From Raja brachyura (taxonomy: Eukaryota): a stretch of 64,000 bases of DNA. The stretch lies in assembly GCA_963514005.1 (NCBI GenBank), contig OY740783.1, positions 129,890,001 to 129,954,000 of the forward strand, given 5' to 3'. Numbering within the stretch: the stretch's first letter is position 1; each line of letters opens with the position of its first letter. The notes beneath the pieces are model-generated. The model was not told the DNA's origin, ran no database searches, and saw nothing but the letters and a program-made list of their open reading frames with translations. Shown one piece after another: positions 7,307-63,813 of this stretch. The position numbers and the translations under genes are program-made.

Positions 7307-7367
7307 ATGTGCTCTCTCCGAGTTTGTCTCTGCACCGTCCTGCTCTCCGTCTCAGTCCACGGTTACC
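7307..7367 (+). CDS. Exon 1, signal peptide [20 protein letters not shown]
   Basis: ATG in a gcgATGt context, 20-aa hydrophobic leader, phase-1 donor GTGAGT at 7368, in a non-repeat island. The link to exon 2 across 18 kb is inferred. Confidence 0.75.
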
Positions 7368-13300: not shown

Positions 13301-16300
13301 GTTTTTTACACCACTAGATGATCGCCCCTCAGCCTCCTGCGCTCCAAGGAATAGAGTCCTAGCCTGCCCGACCTTTCTCTACACCTCAGGCTCTCAAGTC
13401 GTGACATCATCCTTGTAAATCTTCCCTGCGCTCTTTCCAGCTGAAGGCATCCTTCCAGTATCAGGCAGACCATAATAGTGAGATTAAACGAGAACTTACC
13501 TGTTCGAAGTTTGATCTTTATTTTATGAGGAGTTACGATGAGGGATTACGTGAAGAAGCCCCGCCTGGCGCTGGATCAGCATACTTCAAAGCAGCGGCAT
13601 GAAAAACACAGAACCAATAGCCGGAGTAAAATAGTAAGGCTCAAAATAGACTAGAACTACCAGATGATCATTTATATTATGAGGGTTGGGAGTGGAGGGC
13701 ACGTAATCCCTCATCGTAACTCCTCATAAAATAAAGATCAAACTTCGAACAGGTAAGTTCTCGTTTAATCTCACTATTTTACTTCGGAGTCACGTGAGTG
13801 ACTACGTGAAGATTTTAAAGCTCTGTGTTTTCCATGTCGTAAATTCATTTCATACAACTCTCTGTTTGGTCAAAATAGTAGTGAGTAAAAAGTATTTTAA
13901 CACATTGTTATAATTTATGTAATAAGTCCTTTAATTATAAAAAAGAACAACTTTTTTAATAATAATAATAACCCCTCTATCGCAGGGGAAAATGACAAAA
14001 TAATTGATAAATTATGTCAATGGTAACATAAATCGATAATATAAATCGATAATATAAACAAAGCAAGCATTTAAAGAGAACCCAGTACTGCGTGTCCAAA
14101 TCCTGGCACCGTGACAACAGGTTTATTGTAGAACTTTGAAAAAGTTTCTTCTCTAGACCACCCTGCGGCCTCTAAAATTTGATCGAGTGGTACGTCCTGT
14201 ACCTTCGCCGCGGACGTAGCTGCCGCCCTAGTGGAGTGAGATTTAAACACATCAGTGTCTATTCCTGCTAGACCCAAAACCTGTTTTAACCATCTAGAAA
14301 TGGTTTGAACTGAAACTTTTGTATGTGGTTTTTTGTGTGTTATCAATAACGCTTTCTCAGAACCTCTGAGATTTTTGGTTAACTCCATGTATTGAGTTAA
14401 ATGCTTAACTACACACAATGTTTCATCAATAGGATATGCTTTAAACATTACCTTCATTCCAGTTCTCCCTGGTCTGCTTTGTTTGATTAAGTCATAAACA
14501 TAAAACACAATGTTATCTGAAGTCACATGCATGCAATCCAACCTTAACAATTGCAAAGTTTGTACTCTTTGAGCTGATACCAATGCCATTAACATAACCA
14601 CCTTGAATGTTAAGTTCTGCAAAGACATTGAATTAATTGGAGTCCATTGTTGAAGCAAAGTGAGAACAATACTAACATCCCAAATTTCTGTATATCTGGG
14701 CTTGGGAGGATTTTTATTAAAAATACCTTTCATGAATCGGGATACTAATGGGTGAGACCCAACTGAATCCCGATCCGAAATTTGTCCTAAATAGGATGAC
14801 AATGCACTCCGAGCACAATTAATGGCACTATAACTCAAATGCTCATCAAACTGTAACCCAGCAAGGAACTCCAATACATTTGAAATGTTTGCAGAATGAT
14901 AAGATATCTTTGACTGTGTACAAAAGGCTTCCCATTTCCTTATATGCGTCATATATTGTTTTTTAGTGCTAGTCCTCCAAGCTGCATCTATAACATCCAT
15001 GGTCCTGTCCGACAGTTCAAACTCTTGCAATGGTCTGGTCAGAACCTGCAGATTAACAAATTAATATGATCATGCAATGGATGAATTTCTTTTGTTACTG
15101 GTTGTGTCAACAGATTGTCGCAACTGGGAATTGTCATACATGGTTCAATAATCATTTCTAGCATCAATGGGAACCATGACTGCGTAGGCCAATTTGGCAC
15201 CACCAAAATGCCTTTGGCAGCGTCTTGCGCTATTTTCTTGAGACATTGCCCAATGAGACAGAATGGGGGAAAAGCATAAAAGAACATATTCCCCCAGTGT
15301 AGCGAGAAAGCATCCACCGCTACTGCCCCTGGATCGTGTTCCCAAGACACGTATTTCGGCAATTGGTGATTCAATCTAGATGCAAACAGATCAATGTCCG
15401 GTACTCCATACCGACTGACAATATTTTTGAAAATTTGTGGATTTAACATCCATTCTGTATTGTCTTTAAATATTCGTGATCTTTTGTCTGTCATAACATT
15501 GTCTCTCCCTGGGAGATAAATAGCTGAAAGCCCAATATTTTTTGCAATACACCATTGCCACATCTGGTTACCAGATGATCACATGAAATTGATCTGACAC
15601 CACCCATGTGATTGATATATGCCACAGCTGTGGTATAATCTATTTGTACTTGGACATGCAAATCCTTTAATGAAGAGCAATAAGCTTTTAATCCATAAAA
15701 TGCTCCCACTAGCTCCAAATAATTAATACCATATGTTTGGAGCAACAAATCCTCTTGGACAGCCCATCTGCCTCCACAGCTGGTCTCATTGTCCATAGCC
15801 CCCCATCCGAGAGAACTTGCGTCAGTTTGTAAAACCACGACTGGCTGATGAACTAAAATGTTCTTAGCAGCTTGTGGAACATTCTCAATCCACCAATGTA
15901 ATTCTGATAAAGCTTCCTTAGGCAATTGCATTGGCCTATCAAAATGGCCTGCTCGCTGAACTAGCGCTTTAGTTTTTGCCCTCTGAAGATTTTGGTAATG
16001 TAAACGACCAAATTCTACTGCTGGAAATGCTGCTACCAATTTACCAATACCCTTGGCAACCTCTCGGATGGAGGGATAAGGTTTGTTAAGCAGGTTTTGA
16101 CACACATTTGTCAAATCTAACTCCTTATCCATTAGTAAAGTTACCAACATAGTAACTGAGTTAATCACAAACCCCAGATATTCAATGGTTTGGGATGGCT
16201 GTAACTTAGACTTTGTTGGATGGATCAGAAAACCCAACTTCTCAAACAAGCTAATAGTTGCTGAGACTGATTTTCCAGCTGATTCCTGATTAGCATTGAC

Positions 16301-19300
16301 AATTAAAATGTCATCTAGATAAGCCATAACGATGTGTTTTTGTGCCCTAAGCAGTGCAAGTGCTGGCTTTAACAATTTAGTGAACAATCTAGGTGCTGAA
16401 CTTAATCCATTAGGCAAAGCTTTGTATTGCCACAGCTGTCCCATCCATTTAAACTTTAAATACCTGCGAAAATTATGATGAATTGGGACCGAATAATATG
16501 CATCCTTCAAGTCTATTGTAGCCATATAACAGCCTGTTGATACCAACTGCATTGCAGTGTAGAAAGTGTCCATTTTAAAATGTTTATACTTGACAAATGT
16601 ATTCAAAAATGTGAGATCTAAAATAATCCTACAACCCCCATCTTTCTTTGGTCTGGGGAAAATGTTTGATATAATTTGTTGTGGATCCTCTCCTGTTTTC
16701 TCGATAACTCCTTTTTTACTCAAATTCTTAATTTCTTTGTCCATTTGATTTGTCTCAAACTCTGAGAACCTCAAAGGATGACTAGGCTCATTTTGTCCCA
16801 ATGGAACCATACCTTCCACAAAATCAATGGTAGATCCTAGTACAGTGTCTAATACCACACGATCAACTGTAATACTGTCCCATTCCTTATAAAACATTTG
16901 GAGTCTACCACCAATCTGTGGCTCATCCCAGCATTCCTCTTTAATAGGATAATGTTTATGTACCTCTCCAACTGGACGAAATGATCTTCTTTTCCCAATG
17001 AATGGGTGTACATTCGGCTGTGTTGGCTGGAAATTTTTCCTTATCATACTCCTGCCTCGGCTTGTACCAGCTCCAAAATCAAATCTCTTCCTCGTATAGC
17101 CAGTCCATCTCTGGCCAAAGTTGAAGGGTTTCATACGACCAAGAGTCTTTGCCTCTTCATCTATTTCTTTAATTTGTTTAGACAAATCCTCTCCGAACAA
17201 AAAACCAGGAGTTTGAACATTGCTTGGTTTACACAATCCTGCAAATCTTGGATGTAACAGAGGTCGAATGGCAATCTTCCTCATACAATTTATCTCAAAA
17301 AATGAGTTGCAAAATAAGGCCAACATATGTTTCTGCACTTTGGTCATTCCACAACCTTCCACTTGTCTGCCAAGTGCAGTAATGCCAGCTGAAATCAGCT
17401 TGAGGACTCTTTGAAATCGAATTTCCTGCGCCCGCATAATTGATGACATTGGCGCCCAAACAACCGGATTCACCGTAGGTACCTTCAATGAGGCACAATT
17501 GATAGGTGTTTTATACATTTCTGCTGTCTCAACCATAACAGCATCTTGAAGCGGGTGAGAGACCATATAATTAATATTGGCCGCCAGGTTATCTTCCATG
17601 GCCTCACCGCCTCCTCCAGGTATTGCAAAATCTTGTGCCACATCAGGCACACCTGGAGCCATATAATTGTATTGTGGTGTGTACTCCGGACCACAATCAC
17701 CACTTTCAGGGTCTGTCTCATACAGCCCTGGTACTCCTGAAACTTGTTCAAAGGAGACTTCCTCCAGTCCATACCCAGGCACTGGAGTTTCAAATTCCCA
17801 ATTCGAATTGGCACCATATTCACGATATGGAACCCCCTCAGGGGCTGCCTGGGAATATTCTGGGTTCTTAGACCCTTGGTTGATAATAGTTTGGAGCATT
17901 TTCTCCATTTGGTCCATTCTGAGCCATAAGGCTTTTCTTTCTGGACCTTCAGAATCAGAGTCCTCAGAAACCCCAGGCCCTTCAGCTTTTCTTTTACTTT
18001 TTTTTTAGGCACTGGGATTTCCTCTACAGTTTCTGTTTGTGGAGCAATCAAAGCCTCACTAACGGGTGTTTCAACGGCCACCGGTATCGGAACCGGCTCC
18101 ACAATAATCTGCTGTCCCGACTCCTCTGCACCCTGGGACGCACGTTTTACCCGCTGTTTTTTGGCCTTCTCCATTTTGTTTTTTACTAACTCCTCCTGGT
18201 TTACCCACCAGGCTACGGAGTTCTGGAACCTCGCCCTAAATTTTTGTAAAACTCTCTTACCTGCGGGCTGGTTCCTTACCGCTGTGTGGAGCTGCGCTCT
18301 GCAGCTCTTTCGCTGCCGACAGCTACGACGTAATGCCGATCCAGCGCCAGGCGGGGCTTCTTCACGTAGTCACTCACGTGACTCCGAAGTAAAATTGAAC
18401 ACAATACTCCAAATGTGGCCTCACCAACGTGTTGCGACTCCCAACTTCTGTACTCAATACAAGTCAAGTCAAGTGAGTTTATTGTCATGTGTCCCAGATA
18501 GGACAATGACATTCTTGCATTGCTGCAGCACAACAGAATATTGTAGGCATAAATTCAGATCAGTGTGTCCATATACCATGGAATATATATGTACACACAC
18601 AAATAAACAGATAAAGTGCGATAGGCTGTTATAGTTCAGAGTTTGTTTGAAGTTGTGTTTAATAGTCTGATGGCTGTGGGGGAGCAGCTGTTCCTGAACC
18701 TGGATGTTGCAGTCTTCAGGCTCCTGTATCTTCTACCTGATGGCTGTGGAGAGATGAGTGTGTGGCCAGGATGGTGTGGGTCCTTGATGATGCTGCCAGC
18801 CTTTTTGAGGCAGCGATTGGGATAGATCCCTTTGATGGAAGGGAGGTCAGAGCCGATGATGGACTGGGCAGTGGTTACAGCTTTCTGCAGTCTTTTCCAA
18901 TCCTGGATGCTCAAGGGTCTGTCCCACTTTCCCGAGTTACTCACAAATTCTCGCAAGTTTTCCCCTTGATACAAACTCGGAGAATTACGGTAATAGCCAC
19001 CCGTAGGTACTCGGGTCTATTTTTTTTTTACTTGTGGACATTTTTCAACATGCTGAAAAAACGTCCCAATTTATCGACTCCATCCCCTATTCCCAATTCC
19101 TCCGTCTACGCCGCATCTGCTCCCAGGATGAGGTGTTCCACACCAGGTCATCACAAATGTCCTCATTCTTCAGAGTACGGGGATTCCCCTCCCCCATTAT
19201 AGATGAGGCTCGCACCAGGGTCTCCTCCATACCCCGCAACACTGCCCTCTCTCCCCATTCCCCCACTCACAACAAGAGCAGAGTCCCCCTGGTCCTCACC

Positions 19301-25300: not shown

Positions 25301-28300
25301 GTGTTTCTTCCCCTGTTGTTCTATTATTCACCTCTCTCTTCCCCCCTCTCTCTCTCTCCAGGCTTTTCGCACGATGGTTGGACAATGTCCGGTGCTGATG
25401 AGGTATCTGCGATGGAAGGGGCCTCTGCTGTGTTGCCGTGTACATTCACCTACCCACCCAATGGTGGCAACGTCACCGGCTCCGTGTTGTGGCACAACAA
25501 GTTGCCATTAGAGGCTCTCAGCCTTGTGTTTAAATGCACATATGCCGGTCCCGGCCGCCCCCGATGTGATGAAGTGACACAGAAGGCCGGAGGAGGTCGG
25601 TTCAAATTCGTGGGGAACCTCCCAGAGGGAGATGCCTCGATAATGGTGGAGCCGCTGAGAAAGAAGGACAGGAATAGTTACCGGTGCCGCGTGGAGCTCA
25701 CTGTTGGGGGTTTTCAATCTGTGATTCTCACGCAGCTGACTGTGGAAGGTGAGAACAATGTTCAGAAACTGTCGCTGCATCTTGTAGGGTCGGTGGGGGC
25801 GCTGCAAGCCGGCAGCCCCGTCAGCAGTGTGTTAGTCATTTCAACTTTTTTTATTTTTTTAGTGTGTTTTAAAGTGTGTTTTTTATGTTTCTTTGTGTGT
25901 CTTGTGTGGGGGGGATGAGGGGGAAACCGTTTCGGTCGCCTCCTTCACAGAGAGGCAACTTTTTCCAGGTCGCCTCCCGGTGGGCGAACAACAAGGATCG
26001 AGCGGCCTTTCCCGGAGACGCGCCCGGGGGTTCAGCGGCGGGCGCAGCGTGGACACTCGGCGGGGAGCAGGGGAGCAGGTGAGCCGTCGCCGGAGGGGAG
26101 CGCTCCGTTTCGCTGGTCCACGGCAGCCAGCAGCCTGAAGCCGCGGTCTGCAGAGCTCCAGCTGGCGCGGAGTCCGCAGCCTGGGATCCCCCCCGTTGGG
26201 AACCCGGGAGAAGAAGAAGCTCTCACCGCCGGCCCGCAGCCATCTTCTACCGCGGGCCCGGCGTGGACTAACCATCAGGAGTGGGGTCCCTCGCCTGGGA
26301 CCCCTGGAGGGGAGCTCCGACCGCCAGCCCTGCGGTCTGTGGTGCTTCTGGCTGCGGCGCGGCGGGAACTTTAAATCTTCGACCGCCGGCCTGCGGCCAA
26401 CACCAACCTGATGCCACGGTGTCTGGTGGGGAAGAGACGATTCTGGACTTACCTGGACTTTTACCTGCCTCGACATCTGGACGCCCGTAGCGGCGGCTGC
26501 GGAGGGTTGAGGTCCCGACCACGGGGGGAAATGGAGGAGGACTGGCCATTTTTTTTGCCTTCCACCACAGTGATGTATGCTGTGGTGGATGTTTGTGTTC
26601 AATTTTTAATGTGTTTTTGTGTGTTCTTTATCATTGTACCGCTGCTGACACATTCATTTCACTTGCACTTTGTGTGCAATGTGACGAATAAAACTGATTG
26701 ATTGATTGATTGTACAGTGAGTCATAGAGTTATACAGCATGGAAACAGGCCCTTCAGCCCAACTCATCCATGCTGACCCAGCTACACTAAACCGATTTGC
26801 CCATTATTTGACCCACATCCCTTTAAACCTTTTGTATCCGTGTGCCTGTCCAAATGTCTTTTAAATGTTGTTATAGTCCCTGCTTCAACTACCTCCTCTG
26901 GCAGCTCTCTCTATACATCCACCATGCTCTGTACCTTGAAGATTGAATACTCTAACCAAGTAGCCCTTGCATCCCCTCTCTCTCCATCCCTCCCCTACCC
27001 AAGCTTCAAAGTTGTCTTGTGTCTATCTTCAGAGTAAACCAGCATCAGGAACTGCAGATACTGGTTTACACTGAAGATAGACGTAAAATGCTGGAGTAAC
27101 TCAGCGGGACAGGCAGCATCTCTGGAGAGAAGGAATGGGTGATGTTTTTGGGTCGAGACACTTCTTCAGACAGAGTCAAGGGAGAGGGAGACACAAAGAT
27201 AATGAAGTGTAAGGTGTGAAAAGGAGACATCAAAGAGGATAAGTTCAAGGAAAATGTAAAATAGATCATTGTTAGCTAGAAGGAGGTGCCAATGTGCCGA
27301 AAGTCTTTTTGACCACCTTATCTACCTGCGACTCGACCTTCAAGGAACCATGCACCTGTACTCCAAGATCCCTCTGCTACACAACACTCCCCAGAGGCCC
27401 ACCATTCACTCTTCAGGTCCTGCCCTTGTTAGACTTCCCAAATTTAGAAAGGGCTGCAAGGAAAAGCCTGCAAACTACAATCCAATGAGCTTAACATATT
27501 TGGTAGGCAAGTTACTGGAGAGTATTCTGAGGTATAAGATATGTATTTGGATAGACAGGGACTGATTAAGGAGAGTCAGCATGGTTTTGTACGTGGGAGA
27601 TTGTCTCACAAATCAGATCGAGTTTTTTGGAGAGGCACCCAACAAGGTTGACGAGGCCAAATCCGTAAACGTTGCCTCTGTGGACTTCAGCAAGTCATTT
27701 AGTAAGGCTCCACTTGACAATAGACAATAGGTGCAGGAGTAGACCATTCAGCCCTTCGAGCCAGCACCGCCATTCAATGTGATCATGGCTGATCATCCAC
27801 AATCAGTACCCCGTTCCTGTATTCTCCCCATATTCCCTGACTCCGCTATCTTTAAGAGTCCTATCTGGCTCTCTTGAAAGTATTCAGAGAACCGACCTCC
27901 ACTGCCCTCTGAAGCAGAGAATTCCACAGCCTCACAACTCACTGAGAAAATGTGTTTCCTCGTCTCCATTCTAAATGGCTTACCCCTTATTCTTAAACTG
28001 TGGCCCCTGGTTCTGGACTCCCCCAACATCGGGAAAATATTTCCTGCCTCTAGCTTGTCCAAACCCCTAATAATCATATAGGTTTCAATAGGATACCCTA
28101 AATTCGAGGGTATACACGCCCAGCCGTTGCATTCTCTCAGCATATGACTGTCCTGCCATTCCGGGAATTAACCTTGTAAACCTTTGCTACACTCACTCAA
28201 TAGCAAGAATGTCCTTCCTCAAATTAGGGGACCAAAACTGCACACAATATTCCAGGTGTGGTCTCACTAGGGCCCTGTACAACTGCAGAAGGACCTCTTT

Positions 28301-34300: not shown

Positions 34301-37300
34301 GTCTTCCCCACTGAACATCTCCAGCCTTGGTCACTACCTCTACGCTTCTTCCATCACCTCATTCATCCCTCTCCTCACCAGGATCTATCTATCACTTGTC
34401 CAAAGTCTGAAGAAGGGTCTCCACCCAAAACATCACCCATTCCTTTTCTCCAGGGAAGCTGCCTGTCCTGCTGAGTTACTCCAGCATTTTGTGTCTACCT
34501 TCCATCTATCACTTGCCAGCTCTTGCACCACCACTCCCCTCACCTCTTTCTACAGCAATCTCCCCTCTACTCCGTCAGACTGAAGAAAGGAACCGATCCG
34601 AAAGGTCATCTGTCCATTTACCTCCCCGGATTGCTGGGGTCTTTTCACCACAACCCTCTGTCTATCAGTAAATTAGTTCTGAATCCAAATGGTCATGGCA
34701 CCATTAATCCTTCTGAGTCAGCCTACCATGAAGAGTGGCACGGTGGCACAGCGGTGGAGTTGCTGCCTCACAGCGCCAGAGACCCGGCTTCGATCCCGAC
34801 TACAGGTGCTGTCTGTTCTTTCGGTTTTTTCCGGGTGCTCAGATTTCCTGCCACACTCCAATAATCTGCAGGTTTGCAGGTTAATTGGCTTCTGTAAATT
34901 ATCCCTAGTGCGTGTAAGGTAGTGTTAAGCCCCTGTCCCACTTAGGAAACCTGAACGGAAACCTCTGGTGAGCTTGCCCGCGACGCAAGGTTTCCACGAG
35001 GTCGCCGGAGGTTTTGGTCACTCTCTCTAATGGTCGAAAGTGGTTTCCGCTTGGTCAAGGCTTCATCTAGGTTGCTTCGATTGTTTCAACAAAATCAAAA
35101 CCAGCCTCGACTAAAAATAGGTTGCTGTTTTAAAAATTAATAATTTTTTAGTCGCAGGTCTATTCGAAGCCGGTTTTCTTCACAGTCGAGGAAGGTTTTC
35201 AACATATGTGTGGGAGGTGGTAGAAGGTTGCAGGTCACCTCGACCTTGATTTTTTGTTTGGGTGGCGGGCAAGGTCTCCAGAGGTTGCTGTTTAGGTCTT
35301 GTCAGTGGGACAGGGGCTTAAAGGGGCTTAAAAGGTCTCCCGAGTGGGATGATTGCTGGTCGGCACGGACTCGGAGGGCCGAAAGTCCTGCTTCCACGCT
35401 GTATCTTTAAACTCAAATAGCATAAAAGATGCTGCCTGACCCGCTGAGTCCCTCCAGCACTTTCTTTTTTGCTGATGATTCCAGCATCTTCAGTTCCTTG
35501 AGTCTACAAGTTTGGCTGGTTGGGTTCTCTGGGGCAGTTTTTAAGCCTCGAATTTTTCCCCGATAAGTTGGTTGATTGCGGTCGGCGAGGTTCAACTGAT
35601 GCATTCCGGTGTCTGTCCTTCCCTCAGCGCCCGGCGGGAATGTCTCAGTGGTGACTGGGACTGTGGGAGGTTCGGCCACGTTACCCTGTGTGTATCAGCA
35701 ACCCCAGCGTTACCGCAGCGTCCTCACGGTCACATGGATGAGGAAGGATCCCTACCGACACATCGTCACGTTCACACACAAAGCTGATGGATCCTGGGCG
35801 GTGGAGAACGGAGCAACTCGGTTCGAGCTGGTCGGGGACCCAGAGCTGGGAAACGTCTCAACCAGGATAAACCAGCTGAGTGTGGAGGACAGTGACGGCT
35901 ACCAGTGTCTGGTGGAGTTCAGCAAACCGGAATACTACGATGCGACAAAGGACGTCGACGCACATTTGAGGAGCAGCGTACACCCCCCGTACACCCATCA
36001 GTACCAGCGTGAGGTCCGGCTCCAGGTCCAGCAGCCGCTCGCACCCGGTAAGAAACCATCGCCACGTTCTGCCGTGTGGAGCGAAGGTCAATAGTTTGCC
36101 TGAACCCCACCCCACCCCCACACATGTGCCGTTCAGTGTAGCTTCCTCTCCCGTGCCCGGACCCTTGCGCTGAATGCCGTGTGTGTCACTCCCAGAGTCA
36201 GACCGACTGACGGAGTCCGAACCAGTGAGTCGTTATTCATAGAGTTGTAGAGAGTCACAGAGTCCCAGGTCCTTCTGCCCATCTTGCCCACGCCGACCAA
36301 CATGCCCCATCAACACTAGTCCCGCCTGTCCACATTTGGCCCATATCCTTCTAAACTTATCCTCCCCAAGAACCTGTCTAAATGTCTCTTAAATGTTGCA
36401 AGAATCCCTGCCTCAACCACCTCCTCCTGCGGCTCTTTCCTTACACCCACCAATCTTTGTGTAAAAAAAGTTACCCCTCAGATTCCTATTAAATCTTTCC
36501 CGCCTCACCTTAAATCTATGTCAGGTGGTTCTGGATTCCCCAACTCTGGACAAAAGACTGTGTGTGTTTACCCGATCTATTCCTCTCATGATTTTTATAC
36601 ACCTCTATAAGATCGCCCCTCATCCTCCTGCGCTCCAAGGAATAATGTCCTAGCCTGCTCAACGTCTCCCTACAGCTCAGCATGTCAAGTCACATCCTTG
36701 GCAACACCCTTGTAAATCATCTCTGCATCCTTTCCAGCTTGACAGCATCGTTCAAGTTCAAATGTATTTGTCACGTGCACCATAAGGTGCAGTGAAATGT
36801 GATTTACCATGCAGTGTTACAATTAAAAAAGGACATAGTACACAATGTAATTCAACACACATCCACCACAGCATTCTTCACTGTGGTGGAAGGCAATACT
36901 GTTCAGACAGTCCCGTACATGGTGACCAAAACTGAACACAATATTCCAAATGTGGCCTCTCCTATGTCTTATACAACAGTAACATATCCTCCCAACTTCC
37001 ATACTCAATACTCTGACTGATGAAGACCAATGTGCCAAAAGCCTTTATGATCACCCTATCATCGGCTGATATTCAATCACGGCTGATCTGTCTTTCCCTC
37101 TCAACCCCATTCTCCTGCCTTCTCCCCATAACCCCTGATACCAAAACCAGTCAAGAATCTATGAATCTCCGCCTTAATAAATATTCATTGACTTGGCCCC
37201 CATGCCCGTCTGTGGTAATGAATTCCACAGATTCACTACCCTGTTACTCACGAAATATCGCCTCAACTCCTTCCTAAAGGTACATTATTTTATTCTCAGG

Positions 37301-40300
37301 CTATGGCCTCTGATCCCAGACTCTCCCACTAGTGGAAACATCATCTCCACATCCATTCTATCCAGGTCATTCACCATTCGGTGAGTTCCCCCCCTCATCC
37401 TCAACTCCAGCAAGTACAGACCCAGTGCCGTTCTAACGTTCATCATATGTTAACCCAATGAATAAGTTTATGAATGAATAAATGAATGAAGGAATTAGTT
37501 TATTGGCCAAGTATTCACATACAAAGAATTTGCCTTGGTGCTCCGCCCGCAAGTGACAACATGACATGCAGTGACAATTAAGAATGATACATAAAACATT
37601 AAACATTAATAATAAATAATTCCTGGGATCATTCTCTTAAACCCCCTCTGGACCCTTTCCAGAGCCAGCACATCCTTCCTCAGATATGGGGCCTAACATT
37701 ACTCACAATGCTCCAAATGCGATCTGACCAGTGCCTTGCAGAGCATTCCATCCCTGTTTTTGTATTATAGTCCTCTCAAAATAAATGCTAGCATTGCATT
37801 TTCCTTCCTTACTACCCATTCAACATGCGGATTAATGTTTTGGGAAACCTGCACCAACACTCCCAAGACCCTTTACATCTCTGGTCATTCAGTCAAGTCC
37901 AATGTCCGCTATGGTGTAGAGGTGACTCGGATAGTACCCTATCTCATGGAAGGACTGTTCAGACAGTGCATCTTATCCCTCAGAATACTGTCTCATAACT
38001 TTCTGACCACAGATAGTTAGACTCACAGCACTGTCATTCCCAGGATTTTCCCAGCCACCCTTCTTAAACAGAGGCACAACATTTGCCACCCTCCAGTCTC
38101 GTCATTTACGGCAGCACGGTGGCGCATCGGTAGAGTTACTGCTCTACAGTGCCGGAGACCCGGGTTCGATCCAGACTATGGGTGCTGTCTGAGCGGAGTT
38201 TGTACGTTCTCCCCGTGACCTGCGTGGGTTTTCTCCAAGATCTTTAGTTTCCTCCCCACACTGCAAAGACGTACAGGTTTGTAGGTTAATTGGCTTGGTA
38301 TAAATGTAAAACATTGTCCCTAATGTGTGTGTAGGACCGTGTTAATGATGTCCATGTGGACTCGACGGGACGAAGGGCCTGTTTCCACGCTGTATCTCTA
38401 AAATAAATAAAACTAAATTTAGATCATTTACCTTAATTCACAAGCAAGTTAGAAATGGCGTTCCCACATACGAGTTATTTGATGGATCATCATTGATCAT
38501 ATGTTAAGGCCGGGTGTGAACACATGGGCCTACTGATCTCCCGGTCTTCACTGCTCTTTTTTTACAGTGACACCAACAGTGACACCAACAGTGACATCAA
38601 CGTACATCCTGCTCATTCTGATTGCCCTCCTCATGCTCTGCATCCTGCTCATTATTATTCTCTGGAAGAAAGGAGGTGAGTTGACCTACAAATAAGCCAT
38701 TGCAATTCTCTGTCTGCTATCGATTATTATTGTTCCTTGCACCGGGATGCAGAGATCAGCTTTGCTTATGTGCTGGGGGTTACACAAAAAGCTGGAGAAA
38801 CTCAGCGGGTGCAGCAGCATCAAAGGAGCGAAGGAGATAGGCGACGTTTCGGGTCGAGACAGACAGCATTTTCTTCAGACAGCATTTGCTTATGTGCTAT
38901 CGTTTGTCTTTAATTGGACGTCGCACTTCACGCTGGCTCGGCAAGACCACCGGCATAATCAAGGACCGGTGGGTGGGGGGGGAGGAAGAGTGGGTGAGGG
39001 GGGGGGGGGGGGTGAGGGGGGGGGGGAAGTGGGTGAGGGTGGGGAGTGGGTGAGGGTGGGGAGTGGGTGAGGGGAGACAGTGTGTGAGGGGAGACAGTGT
39101 GTTGGGGGGGGAGAATGGGTGTGTGAGGGGGGGGAGTGGGTGAGGGGGAGCAAGTGGGTGAGGGGGGGGAGTGGGTGAGGGGGGAGAGTGGGTGAGGGGG
39201 GGGGAAGAGTGGGTGGGGGGGAGTGGGTGAGGGGTTGGAGATTGCCTTTGGGCTGTAACTTTGATGAATCTTTATTATTCTACATTTGTTATACAATGTG
39301 GATGTCAGCCATTACCTTAATCTTTTCTCATCTCTTTATTCCTGCAGTGTTTTCATCCGTAATGAGGTCAGCCACATTTTCAAAAAGGTAAGAGGGGACA
39401 TGAATCCAAGGCTAAGCGGGGTGGCACGGTGGCGCAGCGGGTAGAGCTGCTGCCTCACAGCGCCAGAGACCCGGGTTCGATCCTGACTACGGGTGCCGTC
39501 TGTACGGAGTTTGTACGTTCTCCTCGTGACCGCGTGGGTTTTCTCCGGGTGCTACGGTTTCCTCACACACTCCAAATACGTACGGCGTTGTAGGATAATA
39601 GGCTTCTCTGCATTGTAAATTGTCCCTAGTAGAGTGAGTAGGATAGTGCTCGTGTACTGCCGATCGCTGGTCGGTGCTGACTCGCTGGGCCGAAGGGCCT
39701 GTTTCCACGCTGTGTGACTAAACTAAAGTGTAAAGTCTAGCATCGCACATTTCCACACTGGGTAAAAAGGTTTTGACAGTCTACCATATCCATACCTCTC
39801 ATTATTGTACATCATACAGGTGTATGGGTTTGTAGGTTAATTGGTTGGTAAAATTGTAAACTGTCCCTACTGCGTAGGGTAGTGCTAGTGTACAGCATGG
39901 ACTCGGTGGGCCGAAAGGCCTGTTTCCGCACTGTATCTCCGAAGTAAAATTTCATATACTCACTGTGGTAAGCACCCTCTGAGATCTGTGGTGTGAGCAG
40001 GAAGTTGAGATGCGCGGATTGCCATGAGATTTCCTGGGCGTTTGATGCAATTTCCTCACGTTGGTTCCTCTCTCTGTAGGAGCGCTGTGAGTCCGGATGT
40101 CACTGGCCGAGGGGCACAGCTGCAGTGTGATTCAGGTACTGAGCGAGCACCTTCTACCCTGCCCAAGGCAGCAAGCAGACCAAAACCAACAGGAGGGCTG
40201 CAGGTAGCAAATGGAGGGTGGAGACAGTACGGGACTGCACACGAGGAAATGCAGATGCTGGTTTGCAAAATAAAATACACAAAGTGCTAGAACAACTGAG

Positions 40301-43300: not shown

Positions 43301-46300
43301 CAGTTCCTTACAAGAAGGGTCCCAAGTGCTGGTTAACAAAAAAGAGACACTTAGTGCTGGAGTAACTCAGCGGTTCAGGCAGCTTCTCTGGAGATCAAAG
43401 CTATTTAGGGGCAGCACATGGTGGTGCAGCTGTAGAGTTGCATCCTCACAGCGCCAGAGACCCGGGTTCCATCTTGATTATGGGTGCTGTCTGTACAAAG
43501 TTTGTCCGTTCTCCCTGTGACCACACACGTGGTTCAGGAGCCTACTTCAGATACTTCGGGTTGGGGCCAGAGCTGAAACGTCACCTATCCACATTCTCCA
43601 GAGATGCTGCCTGACCCGCTGAGTTACTCCAGCACTCTGTGAAACGTCACCTATCCATGTTCTCCACAGATGCTGCCTGACCCGCTGAGTTACTCCAGCA
43701 CTCTGTGAAACGTCACCTATCCATGTTCTCCACAGATGCTGCCTGACCCTCTCTCTCTCCCTCTCCCTCGTTTGAAGGAGTAACTCTCGTGTGCTTTACA
43801 GATCAGGCTGAGTCCAGCACGTACGCCAGCATTATCATCAACAGTGGAAAAGCGAAGAAGCCGCAGGCAGATGATGAAGGTACACACCTTGCTCACAGTC
43901 ATAGAGTGATACAGCGTGGAAACAGACCGCTTGGCCCAACTAGCCCACACCGGCCAACATGTTCCAGCTACACTAGTCCCACCTGCCCATGTTTGGTCCA
44001 TATCCCTCCAAACCTGTCCTAAAAAATGGGTTCCAATCCCACTTCTGACACCATGTTGAGTGATGACCAAACAATAACAGAAGGCTTGCACCAAGATAAA
44101 GATCCAAAGACTTTATTAACTACATAGCAAGCATGACTTCACACTTCCACGTTCAACTTACAATAAAGGAATCCAGCGTGCAGTTATAACTGAAAAGCTA
44201 GTGGGCGTAACTACATGACTCATGAAATGAGTGACACTAATCTACACCCATGTACCTGTCTGAATGTTTCTTAAATGTTGGGATAGTCCCAGCCTCAACT
44301 ACCTCCTCTGGCAGCTCGTTCCATACACCCACCACCCTGTGTGTGAAAAAGTTACCCCTCAAATACCTATTAAATCTTTTCCCCTTCACCTTCAACCTAT
44401 GTCCTATGGTCCTTGATTCACCAACTCTGGGCAAGAGACTCCGTGCGATTACCCGATCTATTCCTCTCAACACCAAGTCCCACATCCCTCACAGTTCGAC
44501 TGGTTGACTAATGGCACATTCTCCTTTACCTCCAGGTGCGCAGAAACCTGAAGCTGCAAACTCAGGTGAGAATGATTCTGTTCCTACTTTACGTTAGTTG
44601 AGTTTAGAGATACAGCGTGGAAACAGGCCCTTCCGCTCACCGTGCCCGCACCGACCAGCGATCCCCGCACATTAACACTACCCTACACTAGGGGACAATT
44701 TTTACATTTAGACCAAGCCAGTTAACCTACAAGCCTGTACGTCTTTGGAGGGTGGGAGGAAACCGAAGATCTCGGAGAAAACCCACGCAGGTCACGGGGA
44801 GAACGTACAAACTCCGTACAGACAGAACCCATAGATGAGCTCGAACCTGGGTCTCCAGCGCTGCATTCACTGTAAGGCAGCAACTCTACCGCTGCGCCAC
44901 CGTGACTTTAGAGATACAGCGTGGAAATGGGCCCTTTGGCCCACAGAGTCCGTGCCAACCAGCGATCACCCTGTACGCTAGCACCATCTTACACACTAGG
45001 GACAATTTACAATCTGACCAACCAACCTAATCAAGAACATATTAATCTCCACCATAGATATATCGATCGACTTGCCCTCCCCCAGCCGTCTATGGCAATG
45101 AATTCCACAGATTCACTACCCTCTGACACATGTCTCTTTCTATTCATGTGTGTGTCTGTAAATTACTGTGTCAAGATTTCACTTATTCACGGGAACAGCA
45201 ATCAGATCAGGTAAAGTGTTGGCACAAGGAACTGCAGATGCTGGTTTACAAACAAGTGCTGGATTAACTCAGTGGGTCAGGCGTCATCCCTGGAGAACAC
45301 GGATGGATAACATTTCCGGTCAGTTCCCACTGAAGGTTCAGGCTCAGGTTTATTATTGTCATGTGTACCGAGGTACGGTGAAAAGCTATGGCTTTGTGTG
45401 CTTTCCAGAACGTAAATATAATCAGTTGAAGCTCAAGTGCAATAGGCTGAGCTAAGGGGAAGATACAGAGTGCAGAGCACTTGAGATCGACTGCGGGGAA
45501 CAAAGGCGGGCGGGCGAAGTGAGGGACGGGGCATCCAAGGAAGGAGACGGCTGGAGGCCCACAACAGCCTGGGACTCACCTGGAACAGGTTCCTAGCATC
45601 TGCACTGGCGCATGGACGCTGAAAATGGTGGGCTGGCAGTTGACTCACGGCTATTCCTTGAAATTCCATTTCAAGCAGGGTGCAAGGCCACCAAATTCCA
45701 GTGCAGTTTCTTACCACTTCAAGCAGTGTGCAAGGCCACCAAATTCAAGTGCAGTGTCATACAACTTCAAACAGGGTGCAAGGCCACCAAATTCAAGTGC
45801 AATTTCATACCATTTGAAGCAGGCTGCAAGGCCACTAAAGACAGCAAGTCGTGACCTCTCCCTCCTCCATCGTGCAGAGACTGAGCCACGCCCACACTTC
45901 TGGGTTTTATAGTCCCTTCCCCCCTCCCATCAGAAGGGGCATGGCCTTCATGGTGTGATTGACAGGAGAGAGACTCTCAACATTTTTTAAACACTAATAA
46001 CTTTTATTTTTCACCGATGGGAAAAGTCTTTGGCACCTGATGAGCGGAGGGGGACTCAGAGTAAGTTGGCCAAAAATCACAGCCATACGTGGTAGCGTTT
46101 TTTCTAAAATCAATGTAAAGCGCAAACAGGAAGTGGTCAAGATTAGACTTTTAATTATAGAGAAGGCAAGGCAACTTTAATTAGGCAAGGCAACTTTAAG
46201 TAGGCAAGGGAACTTTAATTAGGCAAGGCAACTTTAATTAGGCAACACAGCTTTAGCATTGCCAAACCAAAGGCAACACAGCGCTAGCATTTCCAAACCA

Positions 46301-49300
46301 AAGGCAACACAGGTTTAGCATTTCCAAACCAAAGGCAACACAGCCTTCGCATTTCCAAACTATATTTTCAAACCACATTAAGGGCACTGACAGGTCAGTA
46401 AAACCACTCACAGTTTAGTAGACATGTGTTCAGTGTTATTCACAGCTCAGACTGAGAGACGTGACCCTCTCGCTCCCACATCTTGCAGAGACTGACTGAG
46501 ACATTCAACACTTCCGTGTTTTATAGTCCCTTCAGAAGGGGCATGGCCTTCAGAGGAGAAAATCTCAACATTTTTAAAACACTGATAACTCTTTTATTTT
46601 TCATCGATGGGAAAAATCCTCTTGTCCTGCGCAGCGGAGGGGAACTCTGAGTAAGATGGCCAAAAATCACAGCCGTAAGTGGCAGTGTTTTTTCTAAAAT
46701 CAATATACAGAACAACAGGAAATGGTCAAGATCAGACATTTAGTAATATCGATGTTCTCCAGAGATGCTGCCTGACCCGCTGAGTTACTCCAGCACTCTG
46801 TGAAACGTCACCTATCCATGTTCTCCACAGATGCTGCCTGACCCGCTGAGTTACTCCAGCACTCTGTGAAACGTCACCTATCCATGTTCTCCACAGATGC
46901 TGCCTGACCCGCTGAGTTACTCCAGCACCTTGGCTCGTGTATATGCGCCTCTCTCTCTCTCTGTAGTTTGAAGGAGTAACTCTCGTGTGCTTTACAGATC
47001 AGGCTGAATCCTGCACGTACGCCAGCATTATCATCAACAGTGGAAAAGTGAAAAAGCCGCAGGCAGATGATGAAGGTACACACCGTGCTCACAGTCATAG
47101 AGTGATACAGCGTGGAAACCATGTTGAGTGATGACCAAACAATAACAGAAGCCTTGCACCAAGATAAAGATCCAAAGACTTTATTAACTACATAGCAAGC
47201 ATGACTTCACACTTGCACGTTCAACTTACACTAAAGGAATCCAGCATGCAGTTATAACTGAAAAGCTAGTGGGCGTAACTACAGAAGCATGACTCATGAA
47301 ATGAGTGACACTAATTTACACCCATGTACCTGTCTGAATGTTTGTTAAATGTTGGGATAGTCCCAGCCTCAACTACCTCCTCTGGCAGCTCGTTCCATAC
47401 ACCCACCACCCTGTGTGTGAAAAAGTTACCCCTCAAATTCCTATTAAATCTTTTCCCCTTCACCTTCAACCTATGTCCTACGGTCCTTGATTCACCACCT
47501 CTGGGCAAGAGACTCTGTGCGTCTACCCAATCTATTCCTCTCAACACCAATTTCCACATCCCTCACAGTTCGACTGGTTGACTAATGGCACATTCTCCTT
47601 TACTTCCAGGTGCGCAGAAACCTGAAGCTGCAAACTCAGGTGAGAATGATTCTGTTCCTACTTTACGTTAGTTGAGTTTAGAGATACAGCGTGGAAACAG
47701 GCCCTTCCGCTCACCGTGCCCGCACCGACCAGCGATCCCCGCACATTAACACTACCCTACACTAGGGGACAATTTTGACATTAAAGGGCCCGTCCCACAT
47801 GGCCATCATTTGCGCGCCATTAACGCGATCTGGTAGCCTGTGGGTAACGTGGGACGGGCGCATGGAGTGACGTGGAGGAGTGTGGATCCAGATCCGCCGC
47901 ATTCCTACTCCCAGAGCGGGGTCAAGACGATTGAAGATCGACACAAAATGCAGGAGTAACTCAGCGGGACCGGCAGCATCTCTGGAGAGAAGGAATGAGT
48001 GGCGTTTTGGGTCGAGACCCTTCTTCAGACTGAAAAAGAGTCTTGACCAGAAACATCATCCATCTTCAAATGACGTCACGCGCTCCAGACGGCTGTGCGG
48101 GCACATGATGACGCGTGTCAGTCACTACCTGTCACGTAAATGACGGCCAAGTGGGACAGGCCCTTTAGACCAAGCCAGTTAACCTACAAACCTGCACGTC
48201 TTTGGAGTGTGGGAGGAAACCGAAAATGTCAGAGAAAACCAACGCAGGTCACGGGGAGAATGTAGAAACTCCGTACAGATAGCACCCATAGTCGAGATCG
48301 AACCCGGGTCTCGAATCCATTCAGCCCTTCGAGCCATTCAATATGATCATGGCTGATTATTCAAAATCAGTACCCCGTTCCTGTTTTCTCCCCGTATACC
48401 TTGATTCCATTAGCCCTAAGAGCTATATCTGACTCTCTTGAATATATCCAGTGAATTGGCCTCCACTGCCTTCATAGATTCACAACTCTCTGGGTGAAAA
48501 AGCCTTTCATCTCAGTCCTAAATAGCCAACCCCTTATTCAAGCGAATACAAGCCCAGTCGACCCATTCTTTCGTCATATGTCTGTCCCACAATCCCAGGA
48601 ATTAACCTGGTGAACCTAAACTGCACTCCCTCAACAGCAAGAATGTCCTTCCACAAATTAGGAGACCAAAATTGCACACAATACTCCAAGTGCGGTCTCA
48701 CCTGGGTCCTGTACAACTGCAGTAGGACCTCCTTGCTCCGAAACTCAAATCCTCTCTCAATAAAGGCCCACATGCCAGTAGCTTTCTCCACTGCCTGCTG
48801 TACCTGCATGCTTACTTTCAGTGACTGATGTACAAGAACACCCAAGTCTCATTGCACCTCCACTTCTCCTAATCTGGCACCATTCAGATAATAATCTGCC
48901 TTCCTGTTTTTGCCACCAAAGTGGATAACCTCATATTTATCCACATGATACTGCATTTGCCATGCATCTGCCCACTCAGTCAACCTATCCAAGTCACCCT
49001 GCAGCCTCATAGCATCCTCCTCGCAGCTCACACTGCCACCCAGATTTGTGTCATCCGCAAACTTGGAGATGTCACATTTAATTCCCTCGTCTAAATTGTT
49101 AATATATATTGTAAATAACTGGGTCCCAGCACTGAGCCTTGCGGTACCGCACTGGTCACTGCCTGCCACTCTGAAAAGGACCCGTTAATTCCTATTCTTT
49201 GCTTCCTGCCTGCCAACCAGTTCTCTATCCATGTCAATACCCTACCCACAATACCATGTGCTCTAATTTTACCCACTAATCTCTTGTGTGGGACCTTGTC

Positions 49301-58972: not shown

Positions 58973-59717
58973 AAGTGTCGTGATAATACCCGTCTCGACA
59001 ACCTCCTCCAGCAGCTCCTTATACAATATATTGTTGAGGCTGCGTTTGGAGTATTGTGGTCAGTTTTTTGTGTTCAGCTTTTGTCATCCTGCAGCAGGAA
59101 AGACGTGGTTACATAGGGAAGGATGCAGAGAAGATTTACGATGATGCTGCCAGGATTCAAGGAGCCCCAGCTTCAGGGAGAGGTTGGGCAGGTTAGGACT
59201 TTGCACCTTGGAACACAGAAGGATGAGGAGTGATCTTGGCGAGGTGTACAAAATCATGAGAGGAATAGATAAGGTGAACACACAGTCTTTACCCAGGGTA
59301 GGGGCATCAAGAAGGGGCACAGTCTTAGAATAAAGGCGAGTCCATTTAAGACTGAGGTGAGAAAAAACTTTTTCACCCAGAGAGTTGTGAATTTGTGGAA
59401 TTCCCTGCCACAGAGGGCAGTGGAGGCCAAATCACTGGATGGATTTAAGAGAGAGTTAGATAGAGCTCTAGGGACTGGTGGAATCAAGGGATATGGGGAG
59501 GAGGCAGGCACGGGTTATTGATTGGGGATGATCAGCCATGATCCTATTGAATGGCGGTGCTGCCTCAAAGGGTCGAATGGCCTCCTCCTGCACCTATTTT
59601 CTATGTTTGTAAGAACAGGGGACATAGGCTTAAGGTGTGGGGAGAAAGATTTAATAGAAATCTGAGGGTCAACTTTTTTACACAAAGGATGGTGGGTATA
59701 TAGAACAAGCTACCAGA

Positions 59718-62700
59718 ACTGCTAGCACAGTTGAATAGATTGAAATCAGACGTGATTTTCCTTCAAGAGACTCATCTTAAAAGAGATGCTCAACATAGAT
59801 TAACAGCAAAATGGATTTCCAAGGTATATCACTCTTCATTTATACACAAATCTAGAGGAGTTGCAATAATTATCCGTAAAGGTATACCTTTTAAACAAAA
59901 TTCTATAATAGAGGACAAAGAGGGTAGATATGTAATAATTACAGGGGAATTATATTCACAGAAAATAATTTTGGTGAATATATATGCCCCTAATTTTGAT
60001 AACCCACTATTTTTTAAGAAAATATTTAATAATATTCCTATTTCCACTCAATATAATTTAGTTATTGGGGGTGATTTTAATTGCACCTTAGATAGCTACC
60101 TAGACAGGTCTTCTACAAAAAGGAAAGCTACCTCTAATTCAAGTAAATGTTAAGGATATTTGGAGACTAGATAATCCATCCGGACGAGAATACTCGTTTT
60201 TTTCGCCCGTATATGGAACCTATTCTAGGATAGATTATTTTTTAATAGACTCAAAATTACTACCTTTTACGTATGACACAAAATATCATAATATTATTAT
60301 TTCAGATCATGCGCCACTAACATTCAAGATAAAACTAAAAGATATACTTAATAAAACGACTACTTGGAGATTTAATCCCCAGATATTAAAGGATAAGGAC
60401 TGTTGTAAACATGTAATGGAACAGATTAAACTATTTTTTGAAACTAATGACAAACCTGAGATTTCACCATCGTTACTCTGGGACACATTTAAAGCATTTA
60501 TGTGTGGTGCAATAATATCAGCACAGGCTTATTTTAATAAAGAAAATAGAAAGATGGAACAAAGGTTAGAAAATGAGATAAAACAACTAGATAGTGAAAA
60601 CATAAAACGCCCTTCTAAAGAGCTAAGTAATAAAATTGCAATAGCAAAATATAGACTAAATAAAATATATTCTAACCAAGTCATTAAACTATTTCAACAA
60701 ACCAAACAAGTGCACTTTGAGTTTGGAGACAAACCACAAAAACTGTTAGCACGACAACTTAGAAAATTAGAAGATGAAAAATTGATACATAGAATTAGAT
60801 CTGCGGATGGAAATATATTGACGATACCAAAAGATATTTATGATAGATTTCTACAATATTATCAAAATCTTTATTCATCTAAATTAACAGGACAAACAGT
60901 TGGTATGGAAACATTCCTACAAGAGTGTCAAATTAACAGTCTAGATCAGGAAGGTAGACATTTGTTAAACGCTGAAATAACAGTAAAAGATATTGAAGAA
61001 TCAATTAGTTCGTTAAAGAATGGAAAAGCAGCGGGCCCTGATGGCCTGAATGCAGAATTTTATAAAAAATTTCTAGACCTGATTTCCCCAAGATTATATA
61101 CAGTATATAGATATGCATATGAACAAGGCAAATTACCAGAATCTTTAAACAAATCCACAATTACACTCATTCCTAAGGTAGATAAGGATTTGGAAGATCC
61201 AGGATCATATAGAGCGATCGCACTTCTAAATACAGACCAAAAAATATTAACTAAAGTTTTATCTCAGAGATTAAGTTTAGTGATTTCTAAATTAATACAT
61301 CATGATCAAACAGGTTTTATTCCAAAACGCTATTCATCCCATAATCTCAGACGCTTGTTTAATATTATATATTCAAAAAGAGTACGGGACAGGGAATTAG
61401 CACTTGTATCGCTAGATGCAGAAAAGGCATTTGATCAGGTGAAATGGTTATATTTATTTAATATAATGGAAAAGTTTCAATTGGGGGATAGATTCTGTAA
61501 AGGGATAAGAATTTTATATTTGAATCCAACGGCAAGAATTTTAACTAATCAAATATTATCAGCTAAATTTAAGCTCTCTAGGGGATGTAGACAGCGATGT
61601 CCGTTATCGCCTTTACTATTTGCTTTGATGATAGAGCCCTTGGCGGAAAGAATCAGATCTGAACCTGAAATCTATGGCTATAATACTGACACAACAACTA
61701 ACAAAATATCTTTATATGCAGATGACGTTTTGATTTATATTACAAAACCGGAAATTAGTATACCTAAGCTGTTTAATGTTATAACAAAATTTGGCACATT
61801 TTCAGGATTTAGGATTAATTGGAACAAAAGTGATATTATGCCTATAACAGGAATTAATTTAAATATATTACAACAATATCCATTAAAAATAGTTACAGAC
61901 AAATTTAAATATTTAGGAATTAATGTAACTAAATCTTATAAATCACTAATTAATTCTAATTACCCTCTATTATTAGATAAACTTTAAAAAAATATTTTGT
62001 ATTGGAAAACACTTCCTATATCCATGATTGGAAGAATAAATGCTATAAAGATGGTGTTTTTACCACAATTATTATATTTGTTTCAGGCTATTCCTTTTTT
62101 TCTCCCAAAGACTTTAAAAAAAAAAGATAATATTATTTATAGTTTTATTTGGGATTATAAAAATCATAGAATAAGTAAAAAACATTTATGTAAATCTAAG
62201 ATAAACGGAGGACTAGCACTTCCAAATTTTTTATATTATTTTTGGGCAGTCCAGATTAAGAATATGAATTTTTGGTGGGTAAATATGGATCATGAACCAA
62301 TGTGGTTAAAGATGGAAAAGGAAGATTGTTTACCTTATAATGTAGGCTCGATTCTCTTTGCCCCAAAGGAAGTACAAAAAAAATTTATAGGGACAACCCT
62401 ATAATTTATAATAATAGACGTATTTGGAAACAAATAGTTAAGACTTTACAGCTAGATAATCTCTCACTCAGACTACCAATAACGAATAACCCATTATTTA
62501 AACCCTCTATATTGGATGGAGGGTTTAGACATTGGGATGATTTAGGAATTAAAAGGATAGAGCACCTTTATAGAAAAGTAAAATTTCTTTTATTCCAAGA
62601 GTTACAAGATATCTACGGATTGTCTCCGCAACACTTGTTTAGGTACTTACAAATTAGAGATTATATAAAATCCAACACACAAGATTATAAAAATAAAGTA

Positions 62701-63813
62701 CCAGGATTATTAGATGATTTGTTTAATTTGCACACAAATACAGAAAAATTAATAGCCTATATATATAACATAATTTTGGATAAGGAGAATCCGACAACTG
62801 AAACATATCGTCAAGCATGGGAGAATGAAATTGGTTTATCCATAACAAAAGAAAATTGGGAAGAAAGTTTACAGCAAATACATCGGTGTTCGTTAAATGC
62901 CGGACATACATTGATACAATTCAAAGTATTATATAGATTACATTATTCAAAAACTAAATTAAATAGTATCTTTCCCAATCTCTCTTCAATTTGTGATAAA
63001 TATAAGAATTTAGAAGCAAATTTAACACACAGTTTTGCTACATGTCCCAAATTGAATCACTACTGGACAGAAAATTTTAAGGTTATTTCTGAGGTTCTTA
63101 AAATTAGATTGGATCCAGACGCAAAGTTATTAATACTTGGAATTTTGGATTCAAATTCGGTACTTACAGTAAATCAAAGAAATTTATTTGATTACTGTTT
63201 GATAATAGGGAAAAAAATCATATTGAAATTTTGGAAGGGAACATTAACCCCCACAATTAAAATGTGGGCAGCAGAAATGTTGGAGACGTTACAATTAGAA
63301 AGAATCAGATTTGTCCTATTGGACAAATATAATACCTTCGAACAAATATGGTCTCCATATATACAGTATTTAGAGAAGTAGCTGTTCTTGACATCACAGC
63401 TTGACGGGTACCCTGCGGGACGATGAGAATAACATATTCTTATACTAGGATTAATAGGCATGTCTTCATTGATATTATTATTTTTTAATAGTTTTAGATA
63501 CAATATATTTTGTTGATTTTCATTTATATATATATAATATCTTTTCACTTTTTGTTAACCTTTTTTCCTTTCTCTATTTTCTTTTTCTCTTTTATATAAT
63601 CAAATTATTATTTAATCACTCTCTTATTGATTTAAAACTACTCTATCCTTATCTTTATTTCCTAAAAAAATAGAAGATAATAACTTTCAACGGGTTATTT
63701 AAAAAAAATATGGAATTAAGTTGATGTTTGTATATGTTTACACTATTGTAAATTGATTACTTCTAATAAAAGAAATTAAACAAGAGATTCATACAACTGC
63801 TAAAAAAAAAAAA
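59718..63813 (+). mobile_element. L1-clade LINE, truncated near the start of ORF2, with several stops/frameshifts, 3'UTR and poly(A)
   Basis: FLQETH, NIYAPN and GGDFN (APE). KAAGPDG, SLDAEKAFD and YADD (RT). AATAAA at 63765-63770 and an A-tail at 63802-63813. AT-rich, inserted in a CR1 fragment. Confidence 0.95.

Follow-up and report, generated by a model that had tools for sequence, protein, structure and literature searches.

A long germline F-G loop in the second V domain of a Siglec-15-like receptor gene of the skate Raja brachyura: a candidate diversified contact surface

Why does the second of two V domains in a Siglec-15-like receptor carry 35 residues between its F-strand cysteine and its G strand, where the first domain has 14, and is this loop peculiar to one gene? 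We addressed this question in a 64,000-nucleotide stretch of contig OY740783.1 of Raja brachyura (positions 129,890,001 to 129,954,000; hereafter the window, i.e., the whole stretch analysed). A first-pass annotation had proposed that the second domain (V2) lost the arginine kept by the first (V1) and was neofunctionalised, with a protruding loop reminiscent of the CDR3 of VNAR but encoded without rearrangement. The genes concerned are known by automatic names only, and the innate receptors of cartilaginous fishes are poorly catalogued; a literature search found no paper describing the family, and work on shark NCR3 might cover its shark members.

The window gene and its V2 domain

Searches by tblastn with skate orthologues, combined with splice-site inspection, recovered 11 coding exons, all in phase, from the signal peptide (7307) to a stop at 52201 (Table 1). 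The transmembrane (TM) helix is uncharged and the tail holds three cytoplasmic Tyr motifs, STYASI, CTYASI and VIYAAV, the last classed by the ITIM signature in the consulted part of PMC7226832. Judging from its sequence, this is an intact V-V-TM gene of inhibitory design, with a likely inhibitory function. We noticed that the second Tyr motif results from duplication of a two-exon cytoplasmic unit inside the gene (43802-44565 and 46998-47639), and that the number of such units varies among orthologues. Elsewhere in the window, intron 1 holds long overlapping ORFs on the minus strand (14074-18369) with reverse transcriptase and tyrosine recombinase motifs, which we take to be a DIRS-type retrotransposon, while pieces of an ORF2 with endonuclease and reverse transcriptase motifs, presumably LINE-like, lie at 59704-63378 (+) and have a 98-99% identical copy 90 kb upstream in reversed orientation.

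Table 1 Features of the receptor gene in window coordinates
Feature	Position	Strand	Basis
Exon 1, signal peptide	7307..7367	+	tblastn to skate orthologues P0006/P0008, 90-95%; GT donor, phase 1
Exon 2, V1 domain: Cys-to-G segment of 14 residues, Arg next to the F-strand Cys, additional Cys pair	25362..25748	+	
Exon 3, V2 domain: V-set fold, two Cys, Leu at Arg site	35628..36047	+	
F-strand Cys and 35-residue segment, inside V2 exon	35906..36013	+	
Predicted F-G loop proper, 23 aa with short helix	35924..35992	+	structure model
Part of V2 loop varying among paralogues	35921-35983	+	paralogue alignment
Exon 4, short Thr/Pro stalk and uncharged transmembrane helix	38568..38675	+	tblastn, splice sites
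Cytoplasmic exon	39348..39387	+	tblastn, splice sites
Cytoplasmic exon	40080..40135	+	tblastn, splice sites
Cytoplasmic exon with Tyr motif STYASI, copy 1 of duplicated two-exon unit	43802..43879	+	
30-nt cytoplasmic exon, copy 1	44536..44565	+	tblastn, splice sites
Cytoplasmic exon with Tyr motif CTYASI, second copy	46998..47075	+	
30-nt cytoplasmic exon, copy 2	47610..47639	+	
Last coding exon: ITIM consensus VIYAAV and stop	52167..52201	+	

The V2 segment reads as first described: the F-strand Cys (TGT, 35906-35908) is followed by 35 codons (35909-36013) and then by VRLQV, against 14 residues in V1, and V2 has Leu at the Arg site and only two Cys, whereas V1 keeps the Arg and an extra Cys pair. 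The reported richness in Tyr and His also stands (four Tyr and three His among the 35 residues); in the 57 batoid rows of a 68-row V2 alignment, Tyr and His occupy 9.8% and 8.2% of the loop versus 3.7% and 3.5% of the framework. Germline encoding without rearrangement was confirmed in that the whole segment lies within one open, in-phase exon (35628-36047) bounded by AG and GT, and this exon runs unbroken between its AG and GT both here and in 10 aligned paralogues. Its end (36029-36047) extends four codons further than in most paralogues, owing to 12 nt duplicated where strand G ends, a place where copies carry 0, 2 or 4 extra codons and one is 2 shorter.

AlphaFold modelled V2 as a V-set sandwich (pLDDT 87.8 with the 68-row alignment), in which DSSP assigned strand F to residues 89-98, a helix to 111-116 and strand G to 122-134. 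Structure prediction thus upheld a true F-G insertion but reduced its extent, since 12 of the 35 residues fall in strands F and G, leaving a loop proper of about 23 residues (99-121) that is modelled as ordered (pLDDT 79-82). A V1-V2-TM model of the orthologue P0004 (pTM 0.76) likewise gave a helical loop (pLDDT 67-73). Fold searches with V2 returned V-set domains in a tie, Siglec-15 among them with a Z of 13.6 and an rmsd of 2.5 over 113 residues, and an ESM Atlas search returned generic V-set clusters. In Ig topology, a second domain turns its F-G and B-C loops towards the first; the V2 loop would therefore lie at the V1/V2 junction and not at a VNAR-like tip.

Both V1 and V2 are Pfam V-set domains, and the best PDB sequence match of each is Siglec-15 (7zoz; E = 4.9e-11 for V1 and 7.5e-9 for V2), consistent with the likeness proposed earlier for V2. 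According to the consulted part of PMC10264397, Siglec-15 has a V-domain Arg (R143) after the F-strand Cys and a C'-C'' disulfide (C95-C104). V1 carries its Arg directly after the F-strand Cys, and its extra Cys pair aligns with the pair of 7zoz, whereas V2 lacks both. Further likenesses are the LGLK transmembrane motif shared by activating paralogues and the best matches of primate Siglec-15 in this genome, which are mostly V1 exons of the family. The differences concern architecture (V-V, with a V-set second domain followed by the TM exon, versus V-C2), signalling (an uncharged TM and ITIM-type tail in the window gene versus a Lys TM for DAP12/DAP10 and no ITIM), organisation as a multigene family, and a Cys-to-G segment of 35 residues in V2 versus 17 in Siglec-15. 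Human SIGLEC15 is linked to urea-transporter genes; here, urea-transporter genes are on contig C1 and the receptor cluster is on C3. The sequence of V1 leads us to predict that it binds sialic acid.

Distribution and history of the V2 type

V2 matches in this genome include 18 strong ones among the 29 listed, situated on C3 at 128.9-133.5 Mb and on two small contigs, with several copies broken by stops or frameshifts (L008-L011, L016-L018). The closest named proteins to V2 come from Amblyraja and Leucoraja (72-78% identity), and database searches found V1-V2 proteins in skates, stingrays, devil rays, sawfish, electric ray and several shark orders. Applying a motif rule to 94 named proteins (P0001-P0094), we obtained 69 V1 and 100 V2 domains, counts that are not independent events because the proteins are gene predictions including isoforms and near-duplicates. 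The Cys-to-G segment of V1 has 14 residues in 65 of the 66 domains measured. That of V2 spans 17-20 residues in sharks (39 measured of 40; 32 of the 39 have 17, as Siglec-15 does), 18-34 in non-skate batoids (47 of 48) and 12-35 in skates (11 of 12). Eleven aligned V2 exons of this genome have 35 residues in seven cases and 33, 26, 15 and 15 in the rest; the reading frame is open in all 11, and every length change is a multiple of three. For outgroups, a regular expression for F-to-G length measured 249 of 313 domains with a median of 14, and we used only this median as many G strands were mis-called.

Because shark segments have 17-20 residues and batoid segments 12-35, the long V2 loop is, on these predicted proteins, a batoid innovation and not special to the window gene. 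A family in which such a loop is normal therefore exists among skate and ray V2 domains but not among shark ones, and the length of 35 is usual in this skate subfamily (7/11) while lengths vary across batoids. The Arg after the F-strand Cys, found in 52 of 69 V1 domains, occurs in none of the 100 V2 domains, sharks included, so its absence is, as far as the surveyed sequences go, a long-standing trait of V2-type domains and not of this gene in particular.

A tree built from domain cores after removal of the loop (103 columns, 58 hand-picked rows, from an extraction rule that missed some domains) placed the 14 V2 rows in one clade (100/100) apart from the V1 rows. Since V2 rows have their own clade and V1 rows sit elsewhere, V2 is, by this tree, no recent copy of V1. 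The idea that V2 lost its Arg and was neofunctionalised in this gene is contradicted both by the count of 0/100 and by the separate clade. The V2 clade groups with second domains of V-V-C2 proteins (including a chimaera protein) and with TIM-like rows (96/86), deeper forks being without resolution on 103 columns.

The V-V-C2 genes (P0109, P0111, P0121 and P0098, automatically named 'Siglec-15/-12-like') resemble the family in that their second V lacks the Arg and adjoins V2 in the tree, and a sister cluster of them is on the same contig (C3:120.3-120.4 Mb and 128.4 Mb; L019-L023, L026, L058, L062). They differ in keeping a C2 domain, in their short F-G segment and in a first V without the extra Cys pair; such Siglec-15-like genes occur in chimaera, sevengill shark and rays too. 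Members of the TIM (HAVCR) family have four extra Cys and a WFND motif in the F-G loop, whereas V2, despite the 96/86 grouping in this small tree, has two Cys only and no WFND-type motif. Shark NKp30/NCR3 has been described as a VJ-type V domain most similar to NKp30 and linked to the MHC (PMC12227049, as far as consulted). NKp30 aligned only to V1 residues 5-41 (E ~1e-3 versus 5e-11 for Siglec-15) and was absent among the 60 PDB sequence matches listed for V2. We also noticed that strand G of shark V1, but not of skate V1, is often FGSGKGT-like and thus J-motif-like (P0038, P0039, P0056, P0059 and others), which may bear on shark 'NCR3' assignments.

Other arrangements of these domains were observed as well. 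Gene models P0001-P0003, P0036, P0087 and P0094 show V2-V2 tandems or place V2 first, which would make the long loop membrane-distal. Tandem Siglec-15-like V domains, all with the Arg, are found in lungfish (P0097, P0126) and gar (P0124); V-domain multiplication thus recurs in the Siglec-15-like family, bony fish included.

Loop divergence and paired receptors

Among the seven paralogues with 35 residues, tree length per codon was 2.6-2.7 in the loop versus 0.76-0.78 in the framework (~3.4-fold), and pairwise dN was 0.275 versus 0.078, making the loop the fastest-changing part of V2; the B-C loop is variable too. The dN/dS comparison among these paralogues therefore bore out a fast-evolving loop but not a significant excess of omega over 1, because maximum likelihood gave 1.69 for the loop (p = 0.32) and 0.81 for the framework, neither different from 1. 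An earlier result of p = 0.049 for the loop, obtained with a kappa grid starting from 1, was dropped after a wider grid gave the value above. A pairwise bootstrap for the loop yielded P = 0.033, which is weak since pairs are non-independent. Together, positive selection on the V2 loop is suggested by these sequence comparisons. As to changes in length, a 21-nt unit is tandemly repeated in the loop of the broken copy L009 and a Tyr run occurs in the stingray protein P0012, and both would point to slippage as the source.

A tandem copy of the window gene (L002) lies 81 kb upstream, within a whole-gene duplicate at C3:129827500-129870500 (L002, L031, L073, L075-L079) with 95-97% identity to the window gene as far as the TM exon. 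The V2 region matches the window at 97%, and the blocks that align past the TM exon match it at 90-92%. V2 residues are identical at 96/97 positions before the loop, 16/21 in it and 16/16 after it; among the 63 loop bases, 6 differ and each alters a residue, against a single difference in 330 framework bases (Fisher p = 8e-5). Flanking introns differ by ~2.3%, so that the loop diverged about four times faster (p = 0.003), a ratio that patchy gene conversion could also give. A false duplication (haplotig) was ruled out, as the TM exon and tail differ.

The twin's TM exon, ~75% identical to that of the window gene, carries an Arg, and its second cytoplasmic exon is broken by a 2.4-kb retroelement-like insertion. 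Tyr exons were not found in the twin in a search that covered all but the 2.6 kb before the window, and the window gene and one further gene were the only ones in which they turned up. By its sequence, the twin could be a copy in decay or else a partner that activates or acts as a decoy, and it is possible that it represents an inhibitory-to-activating conversion in progress. Six other V2 copies in this genome have a Lys-type TM exon after them. Across 53 batoid rows, we classified 32 as activating-type and 14 as inhibitory-type, with 7 left unclassified; the loop closest to an inhibitory row belonged to a same-species activating receptor in 7 of the 14 (twice identical), to another row in 6, and was tied in 1. 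The paralogues thus lie in clusters, resemble one another in their ectodomains and carry a charged TM in some copies and an ITIM tail in others, the pattern by which paired receptors are recognised, and such sequences make it likely that the elasmobranch-wide Siglec-15-like family consists of paired activating and inhibitory receptors.

Explanations for the loop and their meaning

At a confidence slightly above even, we read the long germline V2 F-G loop as a diversified ligand-contact surface in a likely inhibitory member of likely paired Siglec-15-like receptors. V1 would bind sialylated self glycans via its Arg and signal inhibition, and V2 would contribute a further, variable surface through its F-G and B-C loops at the V1/V2 junction. 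Loop change might be driven by microbes that mimic the receptor-ligand interaction or exploit it, while gene conversion would hold inhibitory and activating twins alike over the remainder of the ectodomain. Loop length likely changes through in-frame slippage and short duplications in a germline exon and not through RAG rearrangement. Relaxed constraint would stay compatible with the data, because the loop omega of 1.69 is not different from 1 and that of the framework is near 1 (0.81); moreover, the 2.4-kb insertion suggests that the twin may be a decaying copy, which would count against this reading of paired receptors, as do the 6 of 14 inhibitory rows whose closest loop is not a same-species activating one.

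A protein without any such loop, owing to splicing of the segment or a silent gene, is very improbable. The segment does offer 18 in-frame GT..AG pairs spanning 48-123 nt, but a GTRAG donor is absent from all of them, and the three whose removal would take out just the loop are 54-60 nt long and without a pyrimidine tract; the frame kept open in 11/11 paralogues, with length changes in threes, and NCBI orthologue models that keep the segment (themselves predictions) also speak against splicing. Read-contig mapping over 35400-38800 was swamped by repeats, with two presumed-RNA runs covering part of V2 at ~90% identity, and the V2 exon compared with four sequencing runs of unstated kind gave paralogue mixtures and one non-canonical joint in a single low-depth contig.

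Two explanations that accept the loop but deny it a role in recognition are each, in our judgement, unlikely. Were it a product of slippage at a tolerant surface position that drifts under relaxed constraint, without specific function, one could accommodate the likelihood test (omega not above 1), the overall omega of 1.28 and the broken copies listed above, but hardly the enrichment of Tyr and His, the retention of long loops in skates, stingrays, devil rays, sawfish and electric ray, or the excess of loop over intron divergence in the twin, subject to the gene-conversion caveat given there. A structural part, in which the loop sets the angle between V1 and V2 by packing on V1, or else holds cis-dimers together, and ligand recognition is left to V1 alone, finds agreement in the conserved loop end (PPY/F, then the G strand; omega 0.12), in the predicted helices and in the V1-V2-TM model, whose pTM of 0.76 suggests a defined domain angle. 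However, shark V1-V2 receptors manage with 17 residues, lengths from 15 to 35 coexist within one genome, and twins with near-identical V1 and V2 cores differ chiefly in the loop.

A bolder form of the contact-surface reading, which we hold only tentatively, is a germline repertoire of CDR3-like V2 loops (12-35 residues, Tyr/His-rich) that would contact microbial proteins in the manner of antibody paratopes, next to a V1 that senses sialic acid, in convergence on VNAR-style recognition within an undescribed innate family. The consulted part of PMC6312525 reports VNAR CDR3 lengths of 0-40 (median ~20) and a J-type GxG motif in FR4. The V2 loop is comparable in F-G position, in length, in Tyr richness and in variability. 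The resemblance to VNAR first proposed stops there: V2 has no J-type GxG (strand G is without GxGT) and no loop Cys, it is the membrane-proximal domain, followed by a TM exon and no constant domains, it is one germline exon with no joining of split V, D and J segments, and its loop variants number tens at most versus a somatic repertoire.

Much of the design is already known, i.e., paired receptors, gene conversion and variable loops. Siglec-5/14 and KIR/LILR are paired receptor families. Closest in pattern are the Xenopus CEACAM pairs, for which the consulted part of PMC5112662 describes near-identical activating and inhibitory ectodomains, signs of gene conversion and change on CFG-side loops. 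The skate and ray family shares the similar ectodomains, the gene-conversion signs and the loop-centred change, and it differs in a length range of 12-35 residues within one second-domain loop. As the design is known and the feature is family-wide rather than special to the window gene, the surprise is limited. Batoids nonetheless lengthened and diversified one loop where their sister sharks kept 17-20 residues, which provides a clean natural experiment, and a twin pair differing in five loop residues offers a direct binding test. Here, our sequence comparisons imply that the V2 loop likely varies what on/off receptors recognise, without gene rearrangement.
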